32,000 nt of DNA from Aliivibrio fischeri ES114. Lineage in GTDB: Bacteria; Pseudomonadota; Gammaproteobacteria; Enterobacterales; Vibrionaceae. The position numbers were made by a program, and so were the translations under genes. The DNA is taken from the NCBI RefSeq assembly GCF_000011805.1, contig NC_006840.2. The stretch is one strand, 5' to 3'. Below are positions 5,545 to 31,945 of the stretch, one piece after another (position 1 is the first letter of the stretch; every line of letters begins with the position of its first letter). The notes below the pieces were generated by a model that saw only the letters and a program-made list of their open reading frames with translations, was not told where the DNA came from and did no database searches.

Positions 5545-5557
5545 AAAAGATTAGATT

Positions 5558-5932: not shown

Positions 5933-5934
5933 TC

Positions 5935-9151: not shown

Positions 9152-9162
9152 GGTTAAATGTT

Positions 9163-9609
9163 GTGACTAATACAAATGAAGCTAAGCCAGTGAATGTATT
9201 AAGCGCAGAAGTGATGATCACAACCGCCTTTCAGGATGCGGATCCGATGGGAGTTGTGTATCACGGTAATTATTTCCGATTTTTTGAAAAAGCACGTCAT
9301 GAAATGCTTGAAAAAATCGGTTATAGCTACCGAGATATGATGGCGTCAGGCTATGTTTGGCCCATCATTGACACTCGTGTTAAGTACGTTAAATCCATTC
9401 CTTACGATCATAAGATCCGAGTGGAAGCGACACTAACGGAATGGGAAAACCGCATGCGTGTTGATTATGTTATCTATGATGCAGAAACCAACGTACGAAT
9501 GACTAAAGCCCATACAATGCAAGTAGCGGTAAGCATAGAAACTGAAGAAATGTGCTTTGTTTCTCCTCGTATATTTACCGATAAAGTAGAGGCTTATCAT
9601 AATGCTTAA
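9163..9609 (+). CDS. 4HBT/YbgC-type hotdog thioesterase
   Basis: Carries the signature DADPMGVVYHGNYFRFFE in a 148-aa product. GTG start at 9163, with AAGG 9-10 nt upstream. Confidence 0.82.
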   Translation: MTNTNEAKPVNVLSAEVMITTAFQDADPMGVVYHGNYFRFFEKARHEMLEKIGYSYRDMMASGYVWPIIDTRVKYVKSIPYDHKIRVEATLTEWENRMRVDYVIYDAETNVRMTKAHTMQVAVSIETEEMCFVSPRIFTDKVEAYHNA

Positions 9610-13255: not shown

Positions 13256-13260
13256 ATTAA

Positions 13261-14448
13261 ATGAGTGACTTTCCTTTATATATACATGCGTGTGGCTCAC
13301 ATTCAGCCATGGGTAAAGAGGTTGATGAAATCCATCAAGTATTGAGTGGAAATAAAGCGCCATCAATGCATAAAGAGACAGGTTGGCTCAATAATGGAAA
13401 GGCAACAGTCGTTGGTAAAGCATTAGGTGAGTTACCTTTAGTTCCTGAGCATTTGGCTCATTGGGATACCAGAAATAATCAGCTTGTTTTGTCCGCTTTA
13501 CAGCAAATCGAACCTCAAATTAACGCCGCAAAAGAGAAATACGGTTCAGATCGTATTGCTGTTATTGTTGGTACGAGTACTTCAGGGATCTCGGATGGTG
13601 AAGTCGCTTTAAAAGAGAAGATGGAGCAAGGGGCTTTTCCTGCTGGTTATAGCTATAAACAACAAGAGTTAGGAAACCCCGCGGATTTTATTGCTCAATA
13701 TCTTGATATCAATGGACCAACGTATGCGATCTCAACCGCTTGTTCCTCAAGTGGTCGTGTTTTCTTATCAGCAAAGCGTTTATTAAAAGCAGGGTTTGTT
13801 GATGCGGTTATCGTTGGCGGTACTGACAGTTTATGCCGTTTAACATTAAATGGTTTCAACAGCCTAGAAGCACTATCAAATGAGTATTGTCTGCCGTTTA
13901 GTCCCAATCGAAAAGGGATAAACATTGGTGAAGCTAGCGCATATATGTTGTTAAGTGCAGAGCAAAAAGATTCTGATGATCCTATTGCTTTATTAGGAGC
14001 TGGAGATAGCTCAGATGCTCACCATATATCGGCCCCGCACCCTGAAGGAAAAGGGGCAATTGAAGCGATGAATAAAGCGCTAACAGATGCTGGTTTGGAA
14101 CCTAAAGACATTGGTTATATTAATGCGCATGGAACCGCCACACCGCTGAATGATGCCATGGAATCTAAAGCCGTTCATGCGGTGTTTGGTCATTCAGTAC
14201 CGGTGAGCTCAACAAAACCATTCACTGGGCACACATTAGGTGCCGCAGGTATCATTGAAGCAAGCATTTGTTGGCATATTTTAAAGTATAATTTACCGCT
14301 ACCTAAGCAGATTAATGACGGACAGCAAGATGATGCACTGGCTGATATTCAGCTTGTGGTCGATCAACCACTAAGAAAAAAAGCCGTTATTAGTAATTCA
14401 TTTGCCTTTGGCGGTAATAACATCAGTTTAATTTTTGGATGTATTTGA
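13261..14448 (+). CDS. Beta-ketoacyl-ACP synthase (elongating KS)
   Basis: Cys-His-His triad motifs are present: ISTACSSSG, NAHGTATPLND and FTGHTLGAAG. The C-terminal NSFAFGGNN motif is also present. Confidence 0.92.
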   Translation: MSDFPLYIHACGSHSAMGKEVDEIHQVLSGNKAPSMHKETGWLNNGKATVVGKALGELPLVPEHLAHWDTRNNQLVLSALQQIEPQINAAKEKYGSDRIAVIVGTSTSGISDGEVALKEKMEQGAFPAGYSYKQQELGNPADFIAQYLDINGPTYAISTACSSSGRVFLSAKRLLKAGFVDAVIVGGTDSLCRLTLNGFNSLEALSNEYCLPFSPNRKGINIGEASAYMLLSAEQKDSDDPIALLGAGDSSDAHHISAPHPEGKGAIEAMNKALTDAGLEPKDIGYINAHGTATPLNDAMESKAVHAVFGHSVPVSSTKPFTGHTLGAAGIIEASICWHILKYNLPLPKQINDGQQDDALADIQLVVDQPLRKKAVISNSFAFGGNNISLIFGCI

Positions 14449-14909
14449 TGAGTAGTATTCCTCCTTTAATCGACCTTTTACCCCATGATACACCTTTAGC
14501 TCTTGTTGATGAGTTGATTGAGGTAAATGACTTATCGGTTCATTGTCAGGTGACAATCGGTGAGAATAATGTCTTTTTTGATCATGAGACGAAAACCGTT
14601 CCCGCTTGGGTTGGTATTGAGTTCATGGCGCAAAGTATTGCTGGTTGGTCTGGCTATCATGCGTGGAAAAAAGGCAATAAGTCACCAATAGGCTTTTTAC
14701 TTGGTAGCCGTAAATACCAAGCTGAGTGCAGCGAGTTTCAACAAGGCGACACACTCGACATTTTTGCAGAGCAAGTGTTAGAGAATAATGGCATGGCCGT
14801 ATTCAGTTGTTATATTGAACATAAAGGACAACAGTTGGCATCGAGCCAATTAAACGTGTTCGTGCCAACAGAAGAAAAATTAGAAGAGCTCTTAACGCCA
14901 AAGCAGTAA
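14448..14909 (+). CDS. Hotdog-fold dehydratase (second DH of the cluster)
   Basis: 153 aa from ATG 14448, which forms a TGATG overlap with the KS stop. The segment AWVGIEFMAQSIAGWSGY is hotdog-type. The track start at 14439 is less likely. Confidence 0.8.
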   Translation: MSSIPPLIDLLPHDTPLALVDELIEVNDLSVHCQVTIGENNVFFDHETKTVPAWVGIEFMAQSIAGWSGYHAWKKGNKSPIGFLLGSRKYQAECSEFQQGDTLDIFAEQVLENNGMAVFSCYIEHKGQQLASSQLNVFVPTEEKLEELLTPKQ

Positions 14910-14928
14910 CGCAGTAGTAGAGGACAAC

Positions 14929-15654
14929 ATGAAAAGACAAGTATTAGTGACAGGCGCCAGTAAAGGCATTGGTCGCGCAATTTCAGAGCAACTAGCAAAG
15001 GATGGCTTTTATATTGTTGTTCATTATATGAGTGATAAAGCTGGCGCAGAGACAACGTTAGCAGCAATTCAAGAGCACGGTGGTGAAGGGCGCTTAATTC
15101 AGTTCGATATTAGTGACCGTGCACAATGTAAAGCGACACTTGAGAGTGATATCGAAACTCATGGTGCATATTATGGTGTGGTAAGTAATGCTGGCATTAC
15201 TCGTGATACCGCTTTCCCTGCAATGACAGAAGAAGAGTGGGATGGCGTAATTCATACCAATTTAGACAGTTTTTATAATGTACTTCATCCTTGTGTTATG
15301 CCGATGGTTCAAAAGCGAAAAGGCGGTCGAATTGTGACGCTTGCATCGGTGTCAGGCATCATGGGTAACCGTGGTCAAACGAACTACAGCGCAGCAAAAG
15401 CTGGCGTTATTGGTGCAACTAAATCTCTTGCGTTAGAGCTAGCAAAACGAAAAATCACAGTAAACTGTGTTGCACCTGGCTTAATTGATACAGGCATGGT
15501 TGATGAGCATGTGAAAGAGCATGCATTGCCACAAGTACCACTTCGAAGAATGGGTGAACCAGAAGAAGTAGCCGGTTTAGTAAGTTACTTAATGTCAGAT
15601 GTTGCGGGTTATGTGACTCGCCAAGTTATTTCAATTAATGGTGGTTTAGTATGA
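14929..15654 (+). CDS. FabG-family 3-oxoacyl-ACP reductase (SDR)
   Basis: Has the TGASKGIGRA cofactor motif, the NAG motif and the catalytic YSAAK, in a 241-aa product. Confidence 0.95.
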   Translation: MKRQVLVTGASKGIGRAISEQLAKDGFYIVVHYMSDKAGAETTLAAIQEHGGEGRLIQFDISDRAQCKATLESDIETHGAYYGVVSNAGITRDTAFPAMTEEEWDGVIHTNLDSFYNVLHPCVMPMVQKRKGGRIVTLASVSGIMGNRGQTNYSAAKAGVIGATKSLALELAKRKITVNCVAPGLIDTGMVDEHVKEHALPQVPLRRMGEPEEVAGLVSYLMSDVAGYVTRQVISINGGLV

Positions 15655-16886
15655 GTCGTCGTGTAGTCGTAACCGGAATGTCTGGTGTTACCGCTTTAGG
15701 TAGTGATTGGAACACCGTAGGCGAAAACCTACGTAAGTGTGAAAATGCCACTCAATATATGCCAAGCTTTGAAGTCTACGATGGTCTTAATACTAAGCTA
15801 GCAGCCCCTATTAATGATTTCACATTACCAAAGCACTATACCCGTAAAAAAATTCGTTCTATGGGACGTGTTTCTTTGTTATCTACCGTTGCTTCAGAGC
15901 AAGCCTTAGAGCAAAGTGGCCTTATTGGAAATGACATCTTAACCAATGGCCAAACAGGTATTGCCTTTGGTTCCTCAACCGGTTCTACCGATGCCGTTGG
16001 TGCTTTTGGTGTGATGCTTAATGAGAAATCAACTCGTGCTATTACGGCAACAACCTATGTGCAAATGATGCCACATACCGCAGCGGTTAACGTTGGTTTA
16101 TTCTTTGGTTTACGTGGCCGAGTTATTCCAACAAGCAGCGCATGTACTTCAGGCAGCCAAGCGATTGGTTATGCTTATGAAGCGATTAAACACGGTTATC
16201 AAACGGCAATGGTTGCTGGTGGCGCAGAAGAATTATGCCCAACAGAATCAGCAGTATTTGATACATTATTCGCAACAAGTTTAAAAAACGATGCGCCAAA
16301 AACATCCCCAAGCCCATATGACCAAGATCGCGATGGTCTTGTTATTGGTGAAGGTGCTGGTGCTTTAGTTCTTGAAGAGTATGAACATGCTAAAGCTCGT
16401 GGCGCAACGATTTACGCAGAGCTAGTTGGTTTTGCAAGTAACTGTGATGCTGCCCATGTAACACAACCACAAATGGAAACCATGCAAATGTGTATGGAAA
16501 TGTCGTTAAGGGATGCCAACTTAGCGCCAGAGAAAATTGGTTATGTTTCAGCGCATGGTACCGCAACAGAACGTGGTGATATAGCAGAAAGTACAGCAAC
16601 AGAGAACGTATTTGGCTCATCAATGCCAATCAGTTCATTGAAGTCTTATTTTGGTCATACATTAGGTGCATGTGGTGCGATTGAAGCGTGGTTATCCATT
16701 GAGATGATGCGTAACAATTGGTTTAGCCCAACATTGAACTTAAATAATGTAGATGAGCGTTGCGGTAAGTTAGATTACATTACAGGTACAGGTCGTGAAA
16801 TTGAGTGTGATTACATCATGAGTAACAACTTTGCTTTTGGTGGTATTAATACATCACTTATCTTTAAGCGCTGGACTGAAGAGTAG
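15651..16886 (+). CDS. Beta-ketoacyl-ACP synthase (FabB/F-like); last gene of the operon
   Basis: Contains the motifs SSACTSGSQA, SAHGTATERGD, FGHTLGACG and NNFAFGGIN. Forms an ATGA overlap with the reductase gene. Confidence 0.95.
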   Translation: MSRRVVVTGMSGVTALGSDWNTVGENLRKCENATQYMPSFEVYDGLNTKLAAPINDFTLPKHYTRKKIRSMGRVSLLSTVASEQALEQSGLIGNDILTNGQTGIAFGSSTGSTDAVGAFGVMLNEKSTRAITATTYVQMMPHTAAVNVGLFFGLRGRVIPTSSACTSGSQAIGYAYEAIKHGYQTAMVAGGAEELCPTESAVFDTLFATSLKNDAPKTSPSPYDQDRDGLVIGEGAGALVLEEYEHAKARGATIYAELVGFASNCDAAHVTQPQMETMQMCMEMSLRDANLAPEKIGYVSAHGTATERGDIAESTATENVFGSSMPISSLKSYFGHTLGACGAIEAWLSIEMMRNNWFSPTLNLNNVDERCGKLDYITGTGREIECDYIMSNNFAFGGINTSLIFKRWTEE

Positions 16887-18643: not shown

Positions 18644-20368
18644 TTACTCTTCAAATATTTTGTCGCGAATGGACCAAAACTTACCTTGCTTACGAGCAAT
18701 CACAAAGCTAGGTGGACGAAAACGGTGTTGGTTATTCGCGATTTTTGTTGCCGCCGTTTCTTCAAAAGGACGATGTCTATCAACAAGATGCGGGCGAACG
18801 AAACTCTTTAAGAATAGCTCTTTCTGCTTTTTGGTTGCCAATTGCCACACTTCATGAATTTCAGAATCATCATCTCCAAAATAGGTGACTTTTATTTGTG
18901 GTTTATTAAATTGATTTTTTCCTGCGGTTAATGTCAGGTCGATACAATTTAAGATCCGTGCATCTTTTAGTTTCAGGGCTTCTTTTAGCTTCTTATCTGG
19001 ATCAACTAAAATGGCATCGCATTCATGGCATACACGAGCTGCTATATCATTATCAGCGCCGCATTCATTACAATATTTGGCTCTAAAACGATAACCGCAC
19101 TCTTCACGTGTGCCTTCGTCATCTTCAAAATAACCTTGGCAGCGACGGCCAAAATGCTCAAGCAAAAAACCGTTACTGTCTAACTTGCCCCAGAAATTAT
19201 TATTAAAGCCGCAAGCTGGGCAGGGGATAGTAATGATTTCACTACTGCTATCAGGTTTCGGGTCGCCAACTTCTGGCTGATATAAATCATAACAGTTACC
19301 TGCATAATCTAAGACCGTACACTCGGTTTTACCTTCAGCAAGACGAAGCCCACGACCAACAATTTGTTGATATAAACTCACCGATTCTGTTGGGCGTAAA
19401 ATGGCAATTAAATCAACATGAGGCGCATCAAAGCCCGTGGTTAATACCGACACATTCACTAAAAATTTCGTTTCTTGATTTTTAAATCGTTGAATGATGG
19501 CATCACGATCACCCAATTTAGTATCACCAATAACCAGTTCAGACTCGGTTGGTGGCAATAAAGAAAGGATCTCTTGAGCATGGCGAACGGTAGCAGCAAA
19601 GATCATCACACCTTTTCTGTCTTTCGCGTATTCCACAATTTGCTGAACGATTTGTGGCGTCGCACGTTTTGATTCTTCAATCACTAAATCCAATTCTGAC
19701 TCTTTGTACTTACCAGTAGAAGCCGGTTTTAACTGTGAGAAGTCATAACTTAATACTGGTGCATCCAAGAGTTTTGCAGGGGTTAAAAATCCCTCATCTA
19801 ATAGATATTGAATAGGGAGTTCAAAAATACAATCACGGAAAAAGCGAGGCGTATCGGTTTTTACCTGTCCACGAGTGTGATACTGATAAATCCAACCAAT
19901 TCCTAAACGGTAAGGCGTCGCCGTTAACCCCAGTACTTTTATGCCAGAGTTTTGGGTCTGTAAGTGCTCAATAACTTTACGATAGCTGGTGTCTTTGTTA
20001 TCTGGAACACGGTGACATTCATCAATAACTAACAGAGAAAATTGATCTTTAAATTCATCAAGATTACGAACCACAGATTGCACAGAGGCAAATACCACCT
20101 GTTTATCGGTCTCTTTTCTACCTAATCCTGCTGAGAAAATCGCTCCCTCTAGACCATAACCTTCATATTTCGCATGGTTTTGTTCAACAAGCTCTTTAAC
20201 GTGAGCAAGTACCAATACACGACCTTTCGCTATTCGTGCTAGCTCTGCAATCACCAAACTTTTCCCTGCACCTGTAGGCAGTACAAGTACCGCAGGCGTC
20301 GTATGTTTTCGGAAATAATGGATAACCGCTTTAACAGAATCTTGTTGGTAAGGTCGTAACGTATACAT
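18644..20368 (-). CDS. radD: SF2 DNA-repair helicase RadD (YejH)
   Basis: MYTLRPYQQDSVKAV...LPTGAGKSLVIAELAR (Walker A), VIDECH (DEAH-like box) and the C-terminal zinc-ribbon Cys clusters (CPACGF...CNECG...CHEC) are essentially collinear with E. coli YejH/RadD as I recall it. The gene neighbours rplY, as it does in E. coli. Confidence 0.9.
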   Translation of the reverse strand: MYTLRPYQQDSVKAVIHYFRKHTTPAVLVLPTGAGKSLVIAELARIAKGRVLVLAHVKELVEQNHAKYEGYGLEGAIFSAGLGRKETDKQVVFASVQSVVRNLDEFKDQFSLLVIDECHRVPDNKDTSYRKVIEHLQTQNSGIKVLGLTATPYRLGIGWIYQYHTRGQVKTDTPRFFRDCIFELPIQYLLDEGFLTPAKLLDAPVLSYDFSQLKPASTGKYKESELDLVIEESKRATPQIVQQIVEYAKDRKGVMIFAATVRHAQEILSLLPPTESELVIGDTKLGDRDAIIQRFKNQETKFLVNVSVLTTGFDAPHVDLIAILRPTESVSLYQQIVGRGLRLAEGKTECTVLDYAGNCYDLYQPEVGDPKPDSSSEIITIPCPACGFNNNFWGKLDSNGFLLEHFGRRCQGYFEDDEGTREECGYRFRAKYCNECGADNDIAARVCHECDAILVDPDKKLKEALKLKDARILNCIDLTLTAGKNQFNKPQIKVTYFGDDDSEIHEVWQLATKKQKELFLKSFVRPHLVDRHRPFEETAATKIANNQHRFRPPSFVIARKQGKFWSIRDKIFEE

Positions 20369-20504
20369 GGATATATAAACAGTGGTTAAGGCAAAAAGGC
20401 ATCATATCAGAATATATAAGATTACTCTTTGTTTTCTTGCTAAGATTAAAACAGTTCTTATCTATCGCATTGGTTATTCAACATTAACAAAGGAAGTTTA
20501 TTCA

Positions 20505-22052
20505 ATGTCAGTGCTTAAACGCATTCATGTCACTCTATTTTTTGTCGCTATTCTTTCTGGCTGTGGTTCGCTTCCTAATGAAATTGAACACACGAACGAA
20601 TCGGTATCAGCACCATTAAGCAGTTCGCTTTCTGAGTTAAGTGCTTCTTTCCAAACAGTTCCCTCAACAGCAGAAACCAGTGCTGTTTTGTTGCAAGATT
20701 CGGGATGGGATGCATTAGCGCAACGTTTAGCATTAATTGAGACTGCAGAGCACAGCATTGATATCCAATATTATATTTGGAACTCAGACGCTTCAGGTCA
20801 TTACCTTGCCAGTCGTTTATTAGCGGCGGCAGATCGTGGTGTTAAAGTGCGTGTCATGCTGGATGATATCAATCTCAATGAACGTGAAGATCTACTTGTG
20901 GCATTAAACGCGCATCCTCACGTTGAGATACGAGTATTTAACCCTATTCCCACTCGCCGTGGCGTTACAAAGTGGGTGAACTTCTTAGGGGATTTTTCTC
21001 GTTTAAATCGTCGTATGCACAATAAATCATTCACCGTTGATGGCGTGTTCTCTGTTGTTGGTGGACGTAATATTGGTGATGAGTATTTTGATCTTTCTAA
21101 CGAGATTAACTTTCGAGACCGTGATGTGTTAGTTCGAGGTTCTGTCGTTTATGATATACAAACCAGCTTTATCGAGTATTGGGACAGCCGTTGGTCTTAC
21201 CCTGTGGATTTATTAGCAAAAGAAGCTTCGCAAGAACCACTCTTACAAAAACAACCAGTATTAGATGAGATTGATGCACCTGTTTATAAAAACTACCCAG
21301 CTTTACCAGAGGGAAATAAAACAGCGCATCAATACTTAACTAATCTAATGGATAAAATGACTTGGGTTAATGCTAAGTTCGTATTTGATCGCCCAGTACC
21401 GCTTGATAAAGACAATACCGATGAGCCTAAAGAGACCGCAAAAGCCCTCGGCAAATTGGCCAGTGAATCCAAGAAAGAGATCTTATTAGAATCGGCTTAC
21501 CTTATTTTTGATGATAACCAACTTAAAGGGTGGCAAGCGCTTATTAATACAGGTGTTGAGATAAAAGCGCTTACCAACTCAATGGCATCGAACGATTTAA
21601 CCACTAACCACTCAGGTTACGCAGGTCGCCGTCAAGATATGCTTGAGCACGGCATTCAACTTTATGAATTAAAGCCTGAAACAGAGCTATGTGAAGAGTC
21701 GACCAAAGACGTTTCTAAATGTGCACCAATATTACCTTATGGACTTCACGCCAAGTCCGCAGTTTTTGATGACAAAATCGCAAGTATCGGCTCTTTTAAC
21801 TTCAATTTGCGTTCAACGTACTTGAATACAGAATCGATTTTAATTATTGAAAATCAAAAAATCGCAGAGCAACTCACTCAAGATATTGAACACGCCATGG
21901 ATGAAGAAAATAGTTGGCACCTAAAACTGCAAGAAGGGGATGTTCGTTGGTATTCTGGTGATAAAAGTTGGGAAAGTGAACCAGAAACTGGGCGTTGGGA
22001 GCGATTTCAATCTGGATTCTTACAGTTATTACCAATAGAAAAGTATTTGTGA
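20505..22052 (+). CDS. Phospholipase D / cardiolipin-synthase-family lipoprotein with two HKD motifs
   Basis: Start at ATG 20505 with SD AGGAAG. Lipobox ILSGC. HKD motifs: RRMHNKSFTVDGVFSVVGGRNIGDEY and GLHAKSAVFDDKIASIGSFNFNLRS. Confidence 0.85.
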   Translation: MSVLKRIHVTLFFVAILSGCGSLPNEIEHTNESVSAPLSSSLSELSASFQTVPSTAETSAVLLQDSGWDALAQRLALIETAEHSIDIQYYIWNSDASGHYLASRLLAAADRGVKVRVMLDDINLNEREDLLVALNAHPHVEIRVFNPIPTRRGVTKWVNFLGDFSRLNRRMHNKSFTVDGVFSVVGGRNIGDEYFDLSNEINFRDRDVLVRGSVVYDIQTSFIEYWDSRWSYPVDLLAKEASQEPLLQKQPVLDEIDAPVYKNYPALPEGNKTAHQYLTNLMDKMTWVNAKFVFDRPVPLDKDNTDEPKETAKALGKLASESKKEILLESAYLIFDDNQLKGWQALINTGVEIKALTNSMASNDLTTNHSGYAGRRQDMLEHGIQLYELKPETELCEESTKDVSKCAPILPYGLHAKSAVFDDKIASIGSFNFNLRSTYLNTESILIIENQKIAEQLTQDIEHAMDEENSWHLKLQEGDVRWYSGDKSWESEPETGRWERFQSGFLQLLPIEKYL

Positions 22053-22072
22053 TTTAACGTTGAATAGGAACC

Positions 22073-22100
22073 TTGTGGTAATTTTTCGTTATTACCACAA
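22073..22100. terminator. Hairpin between convergent genes; possible bidirectional terminator
   Basis: TTGTGGTAAT-ttttcgtt-ATTACCACAA is a 10-bp perfect stem. It lies between the PLD stop (22052) and the barrel-gene stop (22134). No clear U-run on either strand. Confidence 0.4.
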
Positions 22101-22133
22101 ACCCTAACACTCAGTGTTTATTCATAAATCGAA

Positions 22134-22808
22134 TTAGAATGACATTCGTCCACCGACAGTCCAGCTATATTCGGTCTCTGTCATACCGTAGTAGGTACGG
22201 TTGGGATTAAAAGCGGATACTTTTGCGTATGGATAAATATGCCATACAGGGCGCATTGTACCAATTGACAGTTCCCATTCTGCTGCTTGTCCTTGGTTAA
22301 AATCAAGCATGTCCGATTTGTCTTCAGCATAGTGATATTCCAATCTGCTCGTAATATAAGTGTGCTGAAAATATTTAGCGGCAGCAAAATAGGTCGAATA
22401 CTTATTTGCATCATCAACGGTTATCCATGTAAAGCCATTACGAACAAACTCACTGGTGACACCAAATTTTGCAGAATACCCATCAAATAATCGAGCGGCT
22501 GAGAGCTCAATAAAGTGTGTATTGGTTTTAACGCCATCAATACCAGCTACTTCTGACATTAGCCAATCATCTCGTATACCGTATTCATAGTAAGACGCAA
22601 GTTTCCAGCGGGGGTTTACGAATTTATGATAGCCAATTCCTAGACCAACCCAGTTGTCATTGTCTCCACCAATATATAAATAGGTATTATTCGTTACTGC
22701 TGCGGTAACGCCAACTTCTACGACATCCTTTTCAATTGATAAATCAATTCCAGCAATAGCTGAAGTACAGAGCATCATTGCGCTGCAAGTCATTGAAATG
22801 GTTTTCAT
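22134..22808 (-). CDS. Outer-membrane beta-barrel protein; family not assigned
   Basis: 224 aa with a signal peptide (...CTSAIA/G). Alternating aromatic/polar strands are visible throughout, and the C-terminus ...WTVGGRMSF ends in Phe, the OMP beta-signal. Confidence 0.7.
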   Translation of the reverse strand: MKTISMTCSAMMLCTSAIAGIDLSIEKDVVEVGVTAAVTNNTYLYIGGDNDNWVGLGIGYHKFVNPRWKLASYYEYGIRDDWLMSEVAGIDGVKTNTHFIELSAARLFDGYSAKFGVTSEFVRNGFTWITVDDANKYSTYFAAAKYFQHTYITSRLEYHYAEDKSDMLDFNQGQAAEWELSIGTMRPVWHIYPYAKVSAFNPNRTYYGMTETEYSWTVGGRMSF

Positions 22809-22826
22809 GTGATAACCTAGAAAGGT

Positions 22827-22849
22827 GCTCCTAGTACGTAACTAGGAGC
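22827..22849 (-). other. Intercistronic hairpin between the lipoprotein and barrel genes
   Basis: GCTCCTAGT-acgta-ACTAGGAGC is a 9-bp stem sitting in the 50-nt gap. No U-run follows, so it is more likely a processing or stability element than a terminator. Confidence 0.45.
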
Positions 22850-22858
22850 GAGGGAACA

Positions 22859-23482
22859 TTAGTTTAAGCGAGCGCGAATTGAGTCACGGATAGTGTTACG
22901 GTCTATCTCTGGGCTTGAATTTTCCATAAATGGTCTTAAACCACCTTGAACAGTATCACCACCAATGATGATGGATTCACCATCAATAACAATTCCAAAG
23001 TCACCTTCATAGTCGCCTTGGCGAATGATACTTACGTAATGGTCATTACCGTCTTGGTCTTGAACAATCATAGACTGACCATGCCAGTCAACGTTCTTAA
23101 TAACGAATATATTGCCATTTGTATCTGTAATAGTGCTTCCTGAAATCGTGTAGCTTGCCTCTGGACCATTATCAATTGGTGGCATTTCAGGGCCGCCCCA
23201 TACAGGAGGTAGTCGATCTGGTGTATTCCCAGTGTCTAATCCCCAATCAGGTGTGTTATCGATGTCTGGAATCGATGGTACAGGTAGACCAAACTCAGGA
23301 TCAGCGAGTCCCCAATCAGGAGTATCACCAACATCTAAACCCCACTCTGGAGAGTTATCAATATCAGGAATAACAGGATTACCAGGGTTCGTTTGTCCAG
23401 AGCCACTAGAGTCGCTTGAAGAAGAACAACCAGACAGCAATAAAGCACCTGATACTACAACGGCTAAAAGAGATTTATTCAT
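22859..23482 (-). CDS. Lipoprotein with tandem Pro/Asp/Trp-rich repeats and an uncharacterised C-terminal domain
   Basis: Lipobox LLLSGC followed by a Ser-rich linker. Two 19-aa repeats, IPDIDNSPEWGLDVGDTPD (23315-23371) and IPDIDNTPDWGLDTGNTPD (23216-23272), are 15/19 identical. Additional P-[DEV]-[WF]-G-[LG] units follow. SD AGGTGA precedes the ATG. Confidence 0.75.
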   Translation of the reverse strand: MNKSLLAVVVSGALLLSGCSSSSDSSGSGQTNPGNPVIPDIDNSPEWGLDVGDTPDWGLADPEFGLPVPSIPDIDNTPDWGLDTGNTPDRLPPVWGGPEMPPIDNGPEASYTISGSTITDTNGNIFVIKNVDWHGQSMIVQDQDGNDHYVSIIRQGDYEGDFGIVIDGESIIIGGDTVQGGLRPFMENSSPEIDRNTIRDSIRARLN

Positions 23483-23931
23483 AATGTATCACCTAAAGTC
23501 TTATCAAAATTTACTGACTCTTCAATTGGTCAGTGCAGAAAATATCACCCTTTCCTTTGGCGCAATGACAGAGACTTTTTTGGTACATCAACAACCTAGT
23601 ACCATTAGACAAAAATCAAAACCACGCTGTTTGCAATCCATGCGAGTTATTTGTTGAGAGAGATTATGATAATTAGAGGAGGGGATATCTAATGATGATT
23701 ACTTTAGATAGTTATAAGCTTAGCTTATTATTAGTTTGTTAATTATGCCTATCAATAACTTATTCGCAGGAAAAGAACCATTTTCAAGGGCAGAAATTAA
23801 AAATGAAGAAAATGCGAAATGAACAAAGCATCAAAATAGTTAAAGAAAAACATCGATAAACGATACAATAGGTGAGTTGCAAGATGGCAGCATAAAAGAC
23901 TCATTCACATAAAACCGTAAAGTAGCCCTAT

Positions 23932-24435
23932 ATGTCTAAAGATTTTAGTGTCACCACAGAATACGTTCTCGACAAGACCTTCTTTGCAGAATGTTATGAT
24001 CAAACTAGTCAGCCGATTACCTTTCCGAAAGCTTATTTAAAAGGAATACTCTTTTTTCTTTTTGGTCTGGCGTTATTAAAACTTGAGCTATTACCTAATG
24101 GCTACATTGGTTGGTTTTTTATTGCGTTGAGTATTATTGAAGCGTTCAGTATTTACTTTAAGAGAACGTGGTGGCTATGGCGACAATCCATCAGTTCACT
24201 CTCTGGCAGTAAAGTGGTGTTTAACGTTGACGCAAATGGTGTGAGTTATAAAAGCCTTAAAAACACTAAAAATTCTCGCACCATCGCTTGGAGTGACATC
24301 GACCAAGTTGAACAAAGCGATTTAGGGCTTATTTTTCATATTGGAAAACAGCGCCAATACGTCAGTAAATCGTGCTTAAATGAAGAAGAAATCGCCTTTA
24401 TTTTAGAGCAGCATGAACAATCAAAAGTCGAGTAG
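23932..24435 (+). CDS. YcxB-like small membrane protein (two TM helices plus a C-terminal PH-like domain); function unknown
   Basis: 167 aa with two adjacent hydrophobic helices (ILFFLFGLALL..., GWFFIALSIIEAF). The C-terminal pattern IAWSDIDQVEQSDLGLIFHIG...YVSKSCLNEEEIAFI is typical of YcxB-type proteins. The family call is made from memory. Confidence 0.6.
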   Translation: MSKDFSVTTEYVLDKTFFAECYDQTSQPITFPKAYLKGILFFLFGLALLKLELLPNGYIGWFFIALSIIEAFSIYFKRTWWLWRQSISSLSGSKVVFNVDANGVSYKSLKNTKNSRTIAWSDIDQVEQSDLGLIFHIGKQRQYVSKSCLNEEEIAFILEQHEQSKVE

Positions 24436-24464
24436 TTCTCATCAAACTACATAATATTAGCAAC

Positions 24465-24495
24465 TCAAATGGTGCGATACTGTCGCACCATTTGA
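24465..24495 (+). terminator. Terminator hairpin after the YcxB-like gene
   Basis: TCAAATGGTGCGA-tactg-TCGCACCATTTGA is a 13-bp perfect stem followed by ATTTG, a weak U-tract. It lies between convergent genes. Confidence 0.65.
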
Positions 24496-24579
24496 ATTTG
24501 TAGTCTTTCATTCACTCTATTTAGTGATAAATGATTCTCATTGGTCGCTTTTTAAAGACTGTTTATCTTTATTAAACCG

Positions 24580-24837
24580 TTAACGTTGATTCATTTGTGC
24601 TTGTGCAGACGTCGCTCCAAGAGGAGTAATACGATACGGTCGTCCACCTTTAGAGCTGATAAGCTTTTTATTCTTCAGCTTTTTAAACGTGTCCATAGTA
24701 CAGTTAGATAGACCATAACCTTCTCGAGTAAAGCAAGTTATCTCTGTTAACTTTCCATCTTCATTTAGGTAACGGCGGATTTCTCCACCCATTGCAAGTG
24801 TGTGAAGCACTCGTTGTTCTTGTTTTGATATATTCAA
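24580..24837 (-). CDS. yjhX: YjhX/TopAI-family (UPF0386) protein, a topoisomerase I inhibitor-type toxin
   Basis: From TTG 24837, with GGAGA 6 nt upstream, the product is 85 aa: MNISKQEQRVLHTLAMGGEIRRYLNEDGKLTEITCFTREGYGLSNCTMDTFKKLKNKKLISSKGGRPYRITPLG.... It is collinear and equal in length with E. coli YjhX (MNLSRQEQRTLHVLAKGG...REG...FKKLKTKKLI...PYRI) as I recall it. The track's longer ORF (to 24912) lacks an SD. Confidence 0.85.
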   Translation of the reverse strand: MNISKQEQRVLHTLAMGGEIRRYLNEDGKLTEITCFTREGYGLSNCTMDTFKKLKNKKLISSKGGRPYRITPLGATSAQAQMNQR

Positions 24838-24964
24838 GGGATATCTCCGCGTATATTTTAAATTTTTCCTCATTGTTGATTTTGAAATTGTGTTTGTTCC
24901 ACTTGGAGCCAAACACGGTTTTTATACAATGCTAACTAGTGTTTTAATCAAAAAGTACCTTGTT

Positions 24965-25468
24965 TTAAATTTGTTCGTCTGGGTGACTCCACATAATTGG
25001 ATCCGCAAACACACCTTTAATGGTTGATGATGATTGACCAATACCATCAAGTGCATCAGTCGTTAACTCTCGAGCAAACCAGAAATCTGGTGATTCATCA
25101 GAACCGATAGGCAGTGCGACGTTATGTTGAGCATTAAAGCGTCGAGCGTAATGTTTTGGATCACCGAGAACGAAGATAACATCAGCACCTAATTCGCTTT
25201 CTGCTTGTTCCATTAATTGTGTGGCGTAGCCTTTACCTTGATGTTCAGGTAATACCGCTAATGGCGCTAATACAAAGCATTTTAGATGAGGGGCTTTATC
25301 AATCGTGATTGGTGTATAGCAGGCGTGCGCAACTCCTTTGTAGACGATAGAGTAATTACCTTCGTTGATTAAATTGTCTGCAAATTGGGCATACAGTTTT
25401 GCATGTGCTTCAGTATAAAAATCGTCAGCGTTAAATGCTTCAAATTGGATTTGATATGGTGTTTTCAT
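24965..25468 (-). CDS. GNAT-family N-acetyltransferase of the YhbS/COG3153 type (YjhQ-like putative antitoxin)
   Basis: From ATG 25468 the product is 167 aa. LAPLAVLPEHQGKGYATQLMEQAE...VFVLGDPKHYARRF...FWFARELTTDALDG aligns with E. coli YhbS (MAPLAV...YRGQGLARQL...VTLGDPALYSRFGF...FQVHRLADDALNG) as I recall it. Confidence 0.82.
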   Translation of the reverse strand: MKTPYQIQFEAFNADDFYTEAHAKLYAQFADNLINEGNYSIVYKGVAHACYTPITIDKAPHLKCFVLAPLAVLPEHQGKGYATQLMEQAESELGADVIFVLGDPKHYARRFNAQHNVALPIGSDESPDFWFARELTTDALDGIGQSSSTIKGVFADPIMWSHPDEQI

Positions 25469-25493
25469 TTTTATTCTCAAAATTGCCAAATAA

Positions 25494-25507
25494 ACCGACT
25501 GGTTGGT
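25494..25507. promoter_or_regulatory. Operator-like motif ACCGACTGGTTGGT upstream of the GNAT gene
   Basis: It shares ACCGACTGGnnGGT with the site at 26113-26126 and has partial dyad symmetry (ACC...GGT). It lies in the 89-nt tetR-GNAT gap, 26-39 nt upstream of the GNAT ATG. Confidence 0.35.
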
Positions 25508-25557
25508 TTGGTTTTTGGTGTTTAAAAAATCACGCATATATTGATGCGTGATAGGTT

Positions 25558-26100
25558 TTATTGACAGTACTTTTTAATGAACTCTTGTTTAATGTCCATT
25601 AATGGAAAGTCGTTGTTTAACAAGTAATTCATGGCTATACCATCTATCTCTGCGATAAACATCTTTGTGATGACTACTGGGTTTGAATAGCCCACCGCAC
25701 GAAATATTTCTTCTGCTGAGGTTTGTAATTGTTGATATCGGTCTTCAATCAGATCAGCGACGATCGCTCTTGTTGTTGGATGAACCATGACGCTGAAGTT
25801 AAATTGGTACATTTTTCTGTATTTAGCGACAGACATACCATCAAAAATTTCATGGATTGCAGCCTCAAGAGGATCTTCTTGAGTCGCTAAATGAACATCA
25901 TTTTTGTCGGTTTCTTCAATGATAGTGGTAATGTGTATAAAGACTTCTCTTAGTATGTCATTCTTATTCTTAAAGTGATGAAATACTGCGCCTTTTGAGA
26001 CTTCAGCCTCCTCACATATCAATGATACAGGCGTATTCTCAAAGCCATGTTCTGCAAATAACCTTGTTGCTGTTTCTATTATTTGGCTTTTTTTACTCAT
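25558..26100 (-). CDS. TetR/AcrR-family transcriptional regulator
   Basis: The N-terminal HTH is IIETATRLFAEHGFENTPVSLICEEAEVSKGAVFHHFKNKNDIL. 180 aa from ATG 26100, with SD GAGGTG. Confidence 0.9.
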   Translation of the reverse strand: MSKKSQIIETATRLFAEHGFENTPVSLICEEAEVSKGAVFHHFKNKNDILREVFIHITTIIEETDKNDVHLATQEDPLEAAIHEIFDGMSVAKYRKMYQFNFSVMVHPTTRAIVADLIEDRYQQLQTSAEEIFRAVGYSNPVVITKMFIAEIDGIAMNYLLNNDFPLMDIKQEFIKKYCQ

Positions 26101-26112
26101 ACACACCTCAAT

Positions 26113-26126
26113 ACCGACTGGACGGT
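26113..26126. promoter_or_regulatory. Operator-like motif ACCGACTGGACGGT just upstream of the tetR SD
   Basis: Shows dyad symmetry ACCG-N6-CGGT (10 of 14 positions symmetric). Same core as the site at 25494-25507. Confidence 0.35.
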
Positions 26127-26358
26127 CTGTAATTTACCAATGAGCATGCGTCACTGTCAAGAAATTATCTTGGTGATGAAATTTCATCGTTTTTAAATGG
26201 GGTTTAATTTGTTGTGATGCGAATAATACCTCTAATCTAATCACATTTTGATTTGAATAGCTGGGTTATTCGCATCACGAAATGATGTGAATACTTTTTA
26301 GTGGTGGGATGGGCTTGATAATTCACTCAAGCCCACAATCGAATTGAGATAAATTATT

Positions 26359-27447
26359 TTATTTATCTGCAACGATTTCATCCATTAAACGATCAATTTG
26401 AATTACGACTTGTTCGCTTGAATCTTCCATTGCATTAATTGATGTAATCATACCAGCCATATTACCTGTTTGAGCTTTACTCATGGCTTTACGTCCATTG
26501 TCGTGAACTGCCTTGTGAGGCTCTTCCAGTAGAGCATAGCTTTTTAGATGATTATAAGCTTTGCCACTTCCTTTGTAGTACCACTGACCCAATCGACATT
26601 CAGAGTGAGTATTAACGGTTTCGTCGAATGAGTGTTTTTGCAGTAAGCGATACACATTGTTTTTCCAAATCGCATGATCAAGTTTTACCGTATCAAGGAA
26701 CGCTCTCGTTGAAGCGACATAAATGATCTCTTTCATGTGCTCTGATTTATCAACTACCTCATTTACGATGGTTCCAATTTGTGCTGAAGAGGCTGATACT
26801 TCTTCTGCACAGGCTTGGTTTTCATCGATAGATATTTTAATGGCATCCACTTGAGTTAACACTTGGTTCACTAGGGAATCAATCTGCTCGCTAGCGTCAC
26901 TGGCTTTGCTTGCTAGGGTTCTTACTTCATCAGCAACAACAGCAAATCCTCGGCCAGCATCACCTGCACGAGCTGCTTCAATTGCTGCATTGAGAGCAAG
27001 TAAGTTTGTTTGGTCAGAAATTTCTTGGATAGTAGAGACAAGATGAGAAATGGAGTTAGCCGTTTCATCTAATATTTGAACAGATTTAATGCTGTGGGTT
27101 GTTTGAGAGCTTATTTCTACGGCTCTATTGTCAAGTCGAGTGAGGGCTTGATGGGTTTGTTTAAAGACTTCGCTAAGTTGTTCTAGGTTTTCATTCTCTT
27201 GCGCCATCGATTGAGCGCTTTCTACCATTGCAGTTCGAATGGTTTGAAGCATATCACCACCTTTTAAACTGCTCGAAATCAAACCGTCGCTACTTTGATA
27301 ATCTTGCTGTACTGAGATGACTTGCTGTTTAGCTTCTTGGAGCTGATCTTCTAATTTCTGAATATCTGTTTGGTATTTATTTTTAAGGTCAGATAACTCT
27401 TTTTTTAGAGCTTCATTTTCTGCTTTGACTCGATTTAATCTAAACAT
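26359..27447 (-). CDS. Cytoplasmic methyl-accepting chemotaxis protein with a C-terminal CZB (chemoreceptor zinc-binding) domain
   Basis: No TM segment or signal peptide is present. The N-terminus is coiled-coil. It has the canonical MCP hairpin [38 protein letters not shown]. The C-terminal HAIWKNNVY...[10 protein letters not shown]...[10 protein letters not shown] fits the CZB His/Cys/His/His zinc motif. Confidence 0.9.
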
Positions 27448-28381: not shown

Positions 28382-28413
28382 AAAAAAGGGATCTAGCCTA
28401 AACCAGATCCCCC
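28382..28413 (-). terminator. Rho-independent terminator of secDF
   Basis: The minus strand reads GGGATCT-10 nt loop-AGATCCC followed by TTTTTT. Confidence 0.75.
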
Positions 28414-28465: not shown

Positions 28466-29365
28466 TTACGGCTCTTCAGAAATTGGTTTTGGCTTGTAGT
28501 GCTCTGAATTCAAACCAAAGTACTCAGGTAAACTTGTACCTACCGAGATAGAAGACCAAGTACCTGTTACGATACCGATGAACATCGCAATCGCAAAGCC
28601 CTCTAGTGGACCGCCACCTAATAACCATAAAGAACCAACAGTGATTAGGGTAGTACCTGATGTCACCATAGTACGAGAGAAGGTTGCCGCAACTGCCTCG
28701 TTATTGATCTCTTGGATAGATAACTCAGGCTTGGCAATTAACAGCTCACGGATCCTATCTGCAATGATGATAGAGTCATTTAACGAGTAACCTAAAATCG
28801 CCAAAATAGCGGCTAGGGTGGTTAAGTTAAACTCCATTTGAGTCGCAGCAAAGAAACCAAGTACAAACACGATATCGTGGGTTAGGGCAAACAGAGAGCC
28901 AGAAGCCAAACGCCATTCAAAACGGTAGCTTAAATACGCTAAGATAACCAAAACCGACACCAATAATGCCATGCCACCTTGTTCAGTTAGCTCTTGGCCT
29001 ACTTGTGGACCAACGATACTGGTATTTAATACTTGAACATCGGTATGCAGAGGAGCAAGTACCTCAGTCAGTGGTGGAAGTTCAGTACCATGTGGTGGAA
29101 TCGCATAACGCAGAACCCAACGACCCGGCTCACCAGAGGCAATAACAGCAACATCTTGTTTAAAGCCGGCATCCAATAATGGTGCAATTTCACTGTTGGT
29201 GATTTTGCTATCCAGTTGAACTTCACTCACGATACCGCCAGTAAAATCCAAGCCCCAGTTAAGGCCTTTGGTTGCGATCATCGTTAATGCAAAAATCATT
29301 AAACATACCGAAACCACACTCGTCATGTGACGCCATTTTGTTGCATTTTTCATATTTATAAACAT
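28466..29365 (-). CDS. secF: Protein translocase subunit SecF (paralogue linked to the VemP-like ORF)
   Basis: The sequences GLNWGLDFTGG, LAILGYSLNDSIIIADRIRE and a multi-TM profile identify it. The start is either ATG 29365 or ATG 29353, and the secD stop is only a few nt away. Confidence 0.9.
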   Translation of the reverse strand: MFINMKNATKWRHMTSVVSVCLMIFALTMIATKGLNWGLDFTGGIVSEVQLDSKITNSEIAPLLDAGFKQDVAVIASGEPGRWVLRYAIPPHGTELPPLTEVLAPLHTDVQVLNTSIVGPQVGQELTEQGGMALLVSVLVILAYLSYRFEWRLASGSLFALTHDIVFVLGFFAATQMEFNLTTLAAILAILGYSLNDSIIIADRIRELLIAKPELSIQEINNEAVAATFSRTMVTSGTTLITVGSLWLLGGGPLEGFAIAMFIGIVTGTWSSISVGTSLPEYFGLNSEHYKPKPISEEP

Positions 29366-29368
29366 AAC

Positions 29369-31192
29369 TTAAACCCTAACATCATGACGAGAATCACGAC
29401 CCCAAACTAAATTGATAATGGCACGTGAAGCGAAGATGCCGGTGAACATACTGGTTAATAGACCTAAGCCCAGTGTTAATGCAAAGCCTTGGATAGGGCC
29501 ATTACCTATGGTGTATAGAACCACTGCGGTAATCATGGTGGTGAAGTTGGCATCAAAAATGGTACCAAATGCACTACTAAAACCTCTATCAATGGCTTGA
29601 GCCAATGTTCGACCTTCTTTCTGTTTATCTTTAATACGTTCAAATATCAGTACGTTGGTATCAACCGCCATACCTACGGTCAGTACAAGACCTGCAATCC
29701 CCGGAAGCGTAAGAACAGCACCCGGAATAAGAGCAAGCAGACCAAATAGCATTACCATGTTGCCAATAAGTGCAATGTTGGCAACCCAGCCTAAGCGACG
29801 GTACCACACCGCCATAAATAGCAGCGTTAAACCAAGACCAAGACCTAAAGCCGCAAAACCGTTTTGGATGTTTTCAGCACCTAGCGTTGGACCAATAGTA
29901 CGTTCTTCAACGATGGTTACAGGCGCAGTTAATGAACCAGCACGTAGAAGTAGAGCAAGCTCTTGAGATTCTTGAAGAGAACCAGAACCTGTGATTCTAA
30001 AGCGGCTACCTAACTGACTTTGAATCGTCGCAACACTGATGATTTGGTTACTTTGCTCTGTGTTACCTGCGCTATCACGGCTGTATTCGTTGTATGAGGT
30101 TGCCATTGGCTTGCCCACATTGTGACGAGAAAACTCAGACATGATTTTGCCGCCTGAACTATCAAGAACAATGTTTACTTCTGCCATGCCCATTTCACCA
30201 AGACTCGCACGTGCATCAACAATGTGATCACCCGTTAGTACTGGTTTTCTGCCTACACGAACTGGTTGGCCGTTTTGGTCAGGAATAACCATTGTGCTGC
30301 CAGTGCCTTGTTCTTTTACTGCGTAGAAAGCAAGACTTGCTGTCGCACCGATAACGTTTTTCGCCGCTGCTGGATCTTGAACACCTGGAAGCTCGATACG
30401 AATGCGGTTTTCACCTTGACGCTGAACCAGTGCTTCGGTAATACCTAACTCTTCAATACGGCTACGCATGGTTTGAAGGTTTTGCTGTACTGTTAGGTTA
30501 CGTACGGCAATTTTTTCATCTTCTTTTAGCGTTAATTTAAGATCAAAACCGTCATCATTGGTGATTTGCCAAGTAGGGTAGTTTTTATGAATGAATTGAC
30601 GAGCTGCGTGGCTTGCTTCTTCTGAAGGTAAGTGAACCACTAGCGTATCACTGTCTACTTTTTGTAAGCGAACTGAGCGAATACGTTCTTCACGTAACTC
30701 TTGTTTTAGCGAGTCAGCTAATTCGTTACGTTGTGCTTGGTAAACTTGGTTTACGTCCACATCCAGTAAGAATTGCACACCGCCACGTAAATCAAGACCG
30801 AGTTTGATTGGTTCAAAGCCCATGTTTTGTAGCCAAGCTGGTGCAGCAGGTGCAAGTGACAATGCTAGTGTGGTGCCTTTTTGGCTTTCATCAATCACTG
30901 AACCAAGCACATCTTTAGCGGCAACTTGTTGTGCTTCATCTTTCAAAATAACGATGGTTTTATCGCCTTTTTGTTCGATGCGTTTTACGTTAATGCCTTG
31001 CTCAGTCAAGGTGTTTTGTAGTGATACAATCGATGGAATGTGTCCATCTTTGTTGGTGATTTGCACGGCGGCATCTTCACCATACCAAGTCGGGATCGCA
31101 CTCAATAATAGAATAACAAGGGTCGTAATAAGTACGATGTATTTCCATTTAGAATAATGGTTCAGTCGCTGTATTGGTTGTTTTCTTTGCAT
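29369..31192 (-). CDS. secD: Protein translocase subunit SecD (paralogue linked to the VemP-like ORF)
   Basis: Has an N-terminal TM helix and a large periplasmic domain (LGLDLRGGVQFLL). The C-terminal TM bundle contains AGLVLTVGMAVDTNVLIFERIKD. SD GAGGTG (31201-31206) lies 8 nt from ATG 31192. Confidence 0.95.
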   Translation of the reverse strand: MQRKQPIQRLNHYSKWKYIVLITTLVILLLSAIPTWYGEDAAVQITNKDGHIPSIVSLQNTLTEQGINVKRIEQKGDKTIVILKDEAQQVAAKDVLGSVIDESQKGTTLALSLAPAAPAWLQNMGFEPIKLGLDLRGGVQFLLDVDVNQVYQAQRNELADSLKQELREERIRSVRLQKVDSDTLVVHLPSEEASHAARQFIHKNYPTWQITNDDGFDLKLTLKEDEKIAVRNLTVQQNLQTMRSRIEELGITEALVQRQGENRIRIELPGVQDPAAAKNVIGATASLAFYAVKEQGTGSTMVIPDQNGQPVRVGRKPVLTGDHIVDARASLGEMGMAEVNIVLDSSGGKIMSEFSRHNVGKPMATSYNEYSRDSAGNTEQSNQIISVATIQSQLGSRFRITGSGSLQESQELALLLRAGSLTAPVTIVEERTIGPTLGAENIQNGFAALGLGLGLTLLFMAVWYRRLGWVANIALIGNMVMLFGLLALIPGAVLTLPGIAGLVLTVGMAVDTNVLIFERIKDKQKEGRTLAQAIDRGFSSAFGTIFDANFTTMITAVVLYTIGNGPIQGFALTLGLGLLTSMFTGIFASRAIINLVWGRDSRHDVRV

Positions 31193-31194: not shown

Positions 31195-31325
31195 TAATTT
31201 CACCTCACATACGACAATGCGTATGCGAAAAAGTCACAAATCTAGCTAGATCAAATGCTTATATAGATTGGTATAAGTACAGAAATAACTAAGTGATAAA
31301 TCGATGGATTTTGAATGTGAAATTA
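31195..31325 (-). promoter_or_regulatory. vemP-secD intergenic leader with candidate SD-occluding RNA helices
   Basis: mRNA UAAUUUCAC (31317-31325: the vemP stop codon plus 6 nt) is perfectly complementary to GUGAAAUUA (31195-31203: the last 3 nt of the SD plus the spacer). A local hairpin CGCAUACG-cauugu-CGUAUGUG (31206-31227) abuts the SD. Confidence 0.5.
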
Positions 31326-31859
31326 AGCAGCAGGGAACAGTCGATGACTGTAGAGGAGGTTACTTTCTTTCCAAGCAGAGACTCGAGAAACCGATGAATA
31401 GCTGTATAACGCCCAATCAACACTTGGTTTTGGCTTTTCTTGATAACCAATAGTTAATTGTTCAGCAGGGATAGCTGGGATCTCTAACGCTAATTCATAA
31501 ACAGGAAAGACTTCTTCTGGCTCATGGCGTGCTAGGTTTGCCATACGAGATGAGTTACCTACACCAAGGTTTACATTATGGCCTTGAGAAGAATTTTGAG
31601 AATGGGAAGAGAGCGTATTGCTTGGGGTGTCTGTGACATTACAAGTTAAGAAGTCAACTTGATGTGTCAATGACGGGTCTAAAGTAAGGTTCACTTGAAT
31701 GGTAGAATGTTGCTCGATAGTGAAATCGGCAATTACGGTGTCACTGTTTTGCTGATATGAAGATGCCTGAGCAAGCGAACTTACCCCTAAGCATAAACAG
31801 ATGATCAGTAATCGAAACAGTTGTACCACGAAAAATCCAGTGATGTGATAATAGACCAT
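31323..31859 (-). CDS. vemP: VemP-like secretion-monitoring arrest peptide (leader ORF of secDF)
   Basis: Sits immediately upstream of secD on the same strand. It has a signal-peptide-like N-terminus (LLIICLCLGVSSLAQA/SS), a low-complexity S/N/Q/H-rich middle and a C-terminus ...SRVSAWKESNLLYSHRLFPAA*. The start is uncertain: ATG 31859 was chosen, and TTG 31892 is possible. Confidence 0.75.
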   Translation of the reverse strand: MVYYHITGFFVVQLFRLLIICLCLGVSSLAQASSYQQNSDTVIADFTIEQHSTIQVNLTLDPSLTHQVDFLTCNVTDTPSNTLSSHSQNSSQGHNVNLGVGNSSRMANLARHEPEEVFPVYELALEIPAIPAEQLTIGYQEKPKPSVDWALYSYSSVSRVSAWKESNLLYSHRLFPAA

Positions 31860-31945
31860 CGCATCGTATTCGATGAATGGCCTTACTGGCAAGTGAAATT
31901 AATGGATTAATAAAAATTGATGTAATTTTTGTTGTTTATTTCGCT

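Follow-up and report, generated by a model that had tools for sequence, protein, structure and literature searches.

VemP of Vibrio alginolyticus, the best described relative of the gene examined here, is a secreted leader peptide encoded directly upstream of secD2. It is targeted by its signal peptide and stalls the ribosome through contacts between a compacted nascent chain and the exit tunnel. Translocation force releases the stall; until then the ribosome-binding site of secD2 is exposed, because the halted ribosome opens the RNA structure that masks it (PMC5449182, PMC7793623). The arrest motif reads HRISGWKETNAMYVALNSQ|FSA with arrest at Gln156 (Ishii et al. 2015; cryo-electron microscopy (cryo-EM) by Su et al. 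2017, PMC5449182). Further upstream in the nascent chain Trp124 contacts uL22, and Arg-85 delays the cancellation of arrest (PMC7793623). The results of Ishii et al. 2015 and Mori et al. 2018 are quoted here as they are summarized in PMC5449182 and PMC7897499. We analysed a stretch of 32,000 nucleotides of Aliivibrio fischeri ES114 chromosome I (NC_006840.2), hereafter the window, in which a first-pass annotation had proposed that the open reading frame (ORF) directly 5' of secD encodes a divergent arrest peptide of the VemP type. The comparisons below lead us to regard this gene, VF_0876, as the VemP orthologue of A. fischeri, encoding a Sec-monitoring leader and standing first in a vemP-secD-secF operon, with a probability of roughly 0.85.

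The vemP homologue (VF_0876 / VF_RS04580, WP_005418430.1) lies on the minus strand at positions 31323–31829, stop codon included, and encodes 168 amino acids when read from a GTG codon; residues are numbered throughout according to this form. The protein translated from the window is 100% identical to VF_0876 of A. fischeri ES114. Close to its C-terminus the motif RxxxWKxxNxxY is present as R149-VSA-W153-K154-ES-N157-LL-Y160. Translation of the window in all six frames gave the pattern R...WK..N..[YF] once, where 0.015 occurrences would be expected from composition. When the protein was compared with V. alginolyticus VemP by BLASTP, the similarity (E = 4e-5, about 45% identity) was confined to the 20 residues of the motif.

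A word-indexed protein search recovered only Aliivibrio homologues, in which residues 84–166 are near-invariant and the N-terminal part of the mature protein is variable. The wider family was reached by an exhaustive search with a profile built from the Aliivibrio proteins, which gave 56 cluster representatives, all but one of them (55/56) carrying WKxxN within their last 20 residues. In an alignment of 59 sequences, W139, W153, K154 and N157 are invariant, and conservation reaches at least 90% at R95, P109, Y111, E116, R149 and S156. Aligning the family profile with V. alginolyticus VemP by hhalign extended the similarity to 109 columns (E = 2e-5, probability 77%). This alignment pairs R95 (codon at 31545–31547, minus strand) with Arg-85, the invariant W139 (31413–31415, minus strand) with Trp124, and the two arrest motifs with each other; it also sets SSRMANLARHE against NSQRWTSYLRE. 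The genomic context is as constant as the motif: in a locus scan that took one genome per species and covered 80 loci from Aliivibrio, Photobacterium, Shewanella, Ferrimonas and Moritella, a secD gene was found directly downstream of the vemP homologue in every case (80/80). No Pfam or NCBIfam model matched the ORF, and a sequence search of the PDB gave no match, the VemP chain included.

Taken with the published listing described below, these results bear out the family assignment made in the first-pass annotation, which had read R-V-S-A-W-K-E-S-N-x-L-Y as the counterpart of the V. alginolyticus motif. It had quoted that motif correctly, and the alignment with VemP homologues that it called for matches the motif as well as the Arg-85 and Trp-124 equivalents. 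Its count of the motif Trp from the C-terminus also stands: this residue is the 16th from the end in A. fischeri and the 17th in V. alginolyticus (W143 of 159).

The VemP reading is already in print, since Supplementary Data 3 of Fujiwara et al. 2024 (PMC10987492) lists this very gene. Row 1 of that table is the NC_006840.2 upstream ORF 961323..961829, classed as 'VemP, uDF_VemP_Enterobacterales', with a signal peptide at residues 1–22, WKESN at residue 153, a predicted peptidyl (P) site at residue 166 and a 130-nt spacer. The same row places secD at 959369..961192, from which it follows that window coordinates equal genome coordinates minus 930000. The class 'uDF_VemP_Enterobacterales' comprises 339 VemP-like upstream ORFs defined by an RxxxWKxxNxxY-like motif, and the passages of the paper that treat it describe no member outside V. 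alginolyticus as tested. The A. fischeri gene is itself a member of this group and, going by the same tabulated entries, differs from it in no point of classification; Shewanella members share the identical core WKESNLLY, and many tail variants occur in the group, that of Aliivibrio being S[HQ]RL[FY]P. Membership of the gene in the VemP family is thus not new, having been catalogued there by computation.

The resemblance to V. alginolyticus VemP extends over the whole layout of the leader. In both species a secreted leader ORF with an N-terminal signal peptide directly precedes secD-secF, the equivalents of Arg-85 and Trp-124 are followed near the C-terminus by R-x3-W-K-E-[ST]-N-x2-Y, the stop codon follows the predicted arrest point by a few codons, and the ribosome-binding site of secD is predicted to be masked by RNA. 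The two proteins differ in several details of the arrest region. W139 and W153 are separated by 14 residues in A. fischeri and the corresponding Trp residues by 19 in V. alginolyticus, the core reads WKESNLLY instead of WKETNAMY, and the tail is SHRLFP|AA instead of VALNSQ|FSA, so that Asn154 is replaced by Leu and the P-site Gln by Pro. Two codons separate the predicted P site from the stop codon in A. fischeri, compared with three in V. alginolyticus. With regard to the Trp spacing it is V. alginolyticus VemP that is atypical, its upstream Trp being 19 residues before the motif Trp as opposed to 14 in the other 62 tabulated sequences. Because the structurally characterized protein departs in this way from its own family, the contacts of its lower-tunnel helix seen by cryo-EM may not be transferable to most members.

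The putative arrest module, RVSAWKESNLLYSHRLFP, spans R149–P166 (31332–31385, minus strand) as delimited by the motif match. Its P-site codon is most probably that of Pro166 (31332–31334), by homology to Gln156 of V. alginolyticus. Two parts of the module behave differently in evolution. The core consensus of the family, S-R-[IL]-S-[GA]-W-K-[ED]-S-N-L-L-Y, is the A. fischeri core, and V. alginolyticus, with WKETNAMY, is the outlier. The tail that follows the motif Tyr is hypervariable across the family and measures 6–12 residues, that of A. fischeri (SHRLFPAA) having eight. The description of a divergent arrest module given in the first-pass annotation therefore holds for the tail, which is unusual even though tails vary family-wide and which does differ from VALNSQF as noted there, and fails for the core SRxSxWKESNLLY, which is the family consensus. 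Among 90 unique tails none is shorter than six residues, and in V. alginolyticus the P-site residue Gln156 comes exactly six residues after Tyr150. The fourth position after the motif Tyr (Y+4) is Gln or His in 67/90 of these tails, Asn in V. alginolyticus and Leu in Aliivibrio. Pro at Y+6 was found in 13/90, namely in all Aliivibrio proper except A. kagoshimensis, in Moritella (SHRQYP) and in a few Photobacterium. V151, L153 and N154 of V. alginolyticus correspond to S161, R163 and L164 in A. fischeri, so the residues proximal to the peptidyl transferase centre (PTC) do not match; since they are unconserved in the wider family too, they define the V. alginolyticus variant and not the family. 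Positions 155 and 156 of the V. alginolyticus protein act as a spacer.

Within Aliivibrio, codons 149–166 show only synonymous or conservative changes (V/I, Y/F, H/Q, F/Y). Codons S161, R163, L164 and P166 vary only synonymously, and amino-acid changes begin at codons 167 and 168, so that constraint on the peptide ends at Pro166. Such a boundary, as read from codon comparisons, is what would be expected if residue 166 were the last to matter for arrest. Two further observations concern the tails of other genera. At the predicted P site, Photobacterium tails read SHYEHPFVTA and SHYERPFVTA in two loci (L040 and L045) and SHYGHSFVTA in four others (L022, L029, L033 and L037); as these related tails differ there, Pro and Ser appear interchangeable at Y+6 in that clade. 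The VemP of Moritella dasanensis (L078, 3426–3486) has the tail SHRQYPAVTPSV and shares S-H-R-x-[FY]-P-A with the SHRLFPAA of A. fischeri. This likeness between members of different families points to an old tail type or to convergence. It is conceivable, and we put it forward tentatively as something we would sooner doubt than assume, that Aliivibrio, together with Moritella and some further lineages, represents a functionally distinct subclass in which a Pro-dependent S-[HQ]-R-x-[FY]-P replaces PTC silencing of the Asn154 type, with Pro166 in the P site or possibly in the aminoacyl (A) site.

The spacer between vemP and secD is predicted to fold over the secD ribosome-binding site. The secD Shine-Dalgarno sequence, GAGGUGA, was read from the sequence at 31200–31206 (minus strand), 7 nt before the ATG at 31192. 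In the minimum free energy fold, UAAUUUCAC (31325–31317), which consists of the vemP stop codon and the six nucleotides after it, pairs with GUGAAAUUA (31203–31195), which overlaps the 3' half of the Shine-Dalgarno sequence as well as the spacing after it. The GAG of the Shine-Dalgarno sequence is paired separately, within a local 10-bp hairpin, UUCGCAUACG-loop-CGUAUGUGAG, at 31204–31229 on the same strand. Both the long-range helix and the hairpin are retained in the RNAalifold consensus of 11 Aliivibrio sequences; in the hairpin two pairs are altered on one side only and remain paired as G-U. The two blocks that form the long-range helix, the 5' arm at 31317–31325 and the 3' arm at 31195–31203, are invariant in all 11 (11/11) and are the only fully conserved non-coding stretches of the Aliivibrio vemP-secD spacer, the middle of which diverges and carries indels. 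With Pro166 in the P site (31334–31332), the 5' arm spans +10 to +18 and would lie within the mRNA channel or at its margin. We modelled the stalled state by folding only the RNA 3' of the ribosome, and the predicted mean unpaired probability of the Shine-Dalgarno sequence rose from 0.05 in the free RNA to 0.27 when RNA 5' of 31318 was left out. A variant of this calculation, in which the footprint was forced to be unpaired within a longer RNA, was discarded as a model as upstream coding sequence re-paired with the Shine-Dalgarno region. No Rfam family matched in the window. Spacer lengths across the 80 loci (L001–L080) range from about 50 to about 630 nt; automatic secD start calls are unreliable for several Shewanella loci, both for these lengths and for the family-wide pairing test given below.

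These elements can be arranged into a mechanism that follows that of V. alginolyticus. The signal peptide of 22 residues would direct the 168-residue precursor to the Sec translocon. R149-x3-W153-K154-x2-N157-x2-Y160 and the tail SHRLFP, lying in the exit tunnel, would then cause elongation to pause, most probably with Pro166 in the P site. The pull of an active translocon would release this pause, and when export is slow the ribosome would stay in place. A ribosome halted at codon 166 would cover the mRNA to about +15 (~31320), that is, the stop codon and the following UUUCAC, which otherwise would pair with GUGAAAUUA in the secD ribosome-binding site. As the stalled ribosome would cover the 5' arm of the helix, stalling is predicted by the folding model to unmask partly the strong Shine-Dalgarno sequence GAGGUGA and so to allow more translation of secD-secF. 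The proposed switch that masks secD fits the model and remains a prediction of RNA folding.

Several observations weigh against this account. Of the 17 residues with reported importance in V. alginolyticus VemP, seven are replaced in the A. fischeri protein (H138S, G142A, A148L, M149L, V151S, L153R and N154L), and Asn154, a PTC-proximal contact in the cryo-EM structure, is Leu. Our literature searches on A. fischeri vemP retrieved no main-text discussion, experimental test or experimental data. Such a record would suit a decayed or repurposed VemP, a secreted protein that no longer stalls and whose conserved C-terminus serves some other function. We hold this to be very improbable: the residues that are unlike those of V. 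alginolyticus match the consensus of the wider family and are not random drift, strong purifying selection on residues 84–166 ends at the predicted P site and goes together with strict secD synteny, and conservation is lowest in the N-terminal part of the mature protein, the place where one would look for a folded functional domain. The replacement of Asn154, which acts as a PTC silencer in V. alginolyticus, by Leu is also among the grounds for a VemP homologue that would arrest one codon earlier in the manner of SecM- or RAPP-like peptides, with Phe165 in the P site, Pro166-tRNA in the A site, and R163-L-F-P166 as a Pro-dependent element added to the mid-tunnel motif of VemP. Neither R163 nor P166 varies within Aliivibrio, the pattern R-x-[FY]-P is seen again in Moritella (SHRQYP) and in one other lineage (AQRVYP), Pro is the second commonest residue at Y+6, the tail position richest in Pro (the 13/90 given above), and the end of conservation at P166 suits an A-site Pro as well as a P-site Pro. 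SecM- and RAPP-like (RQH) peptides are likewise Sec-monitoring leaders with a signal peptide and a C-terminal arrest point, at which Arg is followed by Pro three residues on. They share no sequence homology with the A. fischeri protein, however, and their last Pro occupies the A site and the third motif residue the P site, whereas homology places Pro166 in the P site. R-L-F-P also departs at both middle positions from (R/Q/H)-(A/G/D)-(P/G/S)-(P/G), with bulky residues where A/G/D and P/G/S are needed, and R163-L164-F165-P166 was rated an unlikely RAPP-like element on that account. In V. alginolyticus VemP a Pro codon in the A site weakens arrest, and related Photobacterium carry Pro or Ser at Y+6 (SHYEHP and SHYGHS), so that Pro is not required in that clade. 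The minimum tail of six residues moreover makes Y+6, not Y+5, the last residue that needs to be synthesized. Arrest with Pro166 in the A site thus seems unlikely to us.

The other points against the account concern the RNA, and they would be accommodated if the peptide stalls and secD-secF are controlled by some other RNA rearrangement, by translational coupling or through mRNA stability. No covariation was found in the Aliivibrio helices (11 sequences), since both pairing blocks are invariant. Thermodynamic support is modest, with a fold z-score of only -2.5 and a duplex energy for the long-range helix no better than that of shuffled controls (z = -0.9). In the modelled stalled state the hairpin still pairs part of the Shine-Dalgarno sequence, its GAG remaining closed after removal of the 5' arm. 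Across 74 loci of the family, pairing between the stop-codon region and the secD Shine-Dalgarno sequence did not stand out from shuffled controls (mean z = -0.4; 9% of loci below -2). The direct stop-to-Shine-Dalgarno pairing of Aliivibrio is therefore not a general rule in a family whose spacers run from about 50 to 630 nt, and lineages other than Aliivibrio must use different RNA arrangements. Control by a route other than the proposed helix is nevertheless improbable in our judgement. The two pairing blocks stand out as fully conserved in an otherwise indel-bearing spacer, a ribosome whose P site holds codon 166 would have the 5' arm within its footprint or at the margin of it, and in V. 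alginolyticus control has been reported to work by Shine-Dalgarno unmasking (PMC7793623). We continue to favour a VemP orthologue that would stall at Pro166 and act on secD through the stop-codon helix.

The start of vemP is annotated differently by GenBank, which uses an ATG at 31859 (178 amino acids), and by RefSeq, which uses the GTG at 31829 (168 amino acids). The longest frame, 31323–31892 on the minus strand, begins with a TTG and encodes 189 amino acids; it was the form given in the first-pass annotation, whose C-terminal end, ...SRVSAWKESNLLYSHRLFPAA*, agrees with the minus-strand translation. The ORF is real and secD lies 130 nt downstream of it, and its start was over-extended, as only the GTG at 31829 is kept across the Aliivibrio loci. 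This codon is the sole start candidate common to all 12 of them, three codons before a conserved LFR, and in another A. fischeri strain, as well as in two more Aliivibrio loci (L006 and L008), it is the sole in-frame candidate. To judge from this conservation, the true start is probably the GTG at 31829 and not the codon at 31892. A consensus scan found a weak promoter-like site upstream of vemP, TTGCCA -18 nt- TACGAT (31863–31892, minus strand; 9/12 matches). If it is real, the transcript would begin downstream of both the TTG at 31892 and the ATG at 31859, which would favour the GTG start. The signal peptide that had been suspected at the N-terminus, MVQLFRLLIICLCLGVSSLAQA|SS, can be placed at residues 1–22 (31764–31829, minus strand). 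A short basic n-region, a hydrophobic core and an AQA cleavage motif can be read from the sequence, and the published SignalP-6.0 call, 'SSio 1to22', agrees.

The genes vemP, secD and secF follow one another in this order on the minus strand. The secD gene (29369–31192) encodes a probable SecD2-type protein of 607 amino acids with all SecD Pfam domains. It scores 1095 bits with the NCBIfam equivalog NF009545 and passes the cut-off of 728, whereas E. coli SecD, at 646 bits, fails it. Its identity is 43% to E. coli SecD and 44% to the N-terminal 142 residues of V. alginolyticus SecD2. The yajC gene, which precedes the housekeeping secD in E. coli, was not found upstream of secD at this locus. 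The NF009545 score, the identities and the locus without yajC fit a SecD2-type gene. They are indirect evidence that the pair may be the SecDF paralogue proposed in the first-pass annotation; in the VemP system the regulated SecDF is a second, Na+-independent copy beside a housekeeping SecDF1. The secF gene (28466–29365, minus strand) encodes 299 amino acids and scores 263 bits with TIGR00966, against a cut-off of 160. A terminator-like stem-loop with a T-run 3' of secF (28386–28413, minus strand) is the likely end of the operon.

The remainder of the window holds several genes of other kinds. At 2289–16886 on the plus strand lies a run of co-oriented genes that, to judge from a scan of its first ten ORFs, looks like a lipid pigment cluster of the aryl-polyene or flexirubin type. 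The matches in it include an acyltransferase, an adenylate-forming ligase, a glycosyltransferase, a histidine/tyrosine ammonia-lyase and a YbgC-type thioesterase, and a LolA-like protein matches 'flexirubin biosynthesis/transport LolA2'. The interval between this cluster and secF (18644–27447) encodes a RadD helicase (18644–20368, minus strand), a phospholipase-D / cardiolipin-synthase-like protein (20382–22052, plus strand), a TetR-family regulator (25558–26106, minus strand) and a protein with a chemoreceptor signalling domain (26359–27447, minus strand), together with several ORFs that have no NCBIfam match.

As a discovery the identification of VF_0876 matters little, because the gene is already catalogued as VemP. 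The interest that remains lies in the Aliivibrio-type tail, in which Y+4 is Leu and the predicted P site carries an invariant Pro, and in a very compact predicted RNA switch, in which the stop codon itself would pair with the secD ribosome-binding site. Were the tentative Pro-dependent subclass to prove true, its members would be hybrids that join proline-based stalling to the mid-tunnel module of VemP, and the arrest module would be seen to consist of two halves that evolve as exchangeable parts. VemP of A. fischeri is a natural variant that combines the family-consensus mid-tunnel motif with a different PTC-proximal tail. Since A. fischeri is open to genetic manipulation, the species would serve conveniently as a second system in which to establish the essential parts of the VemP arrest module.

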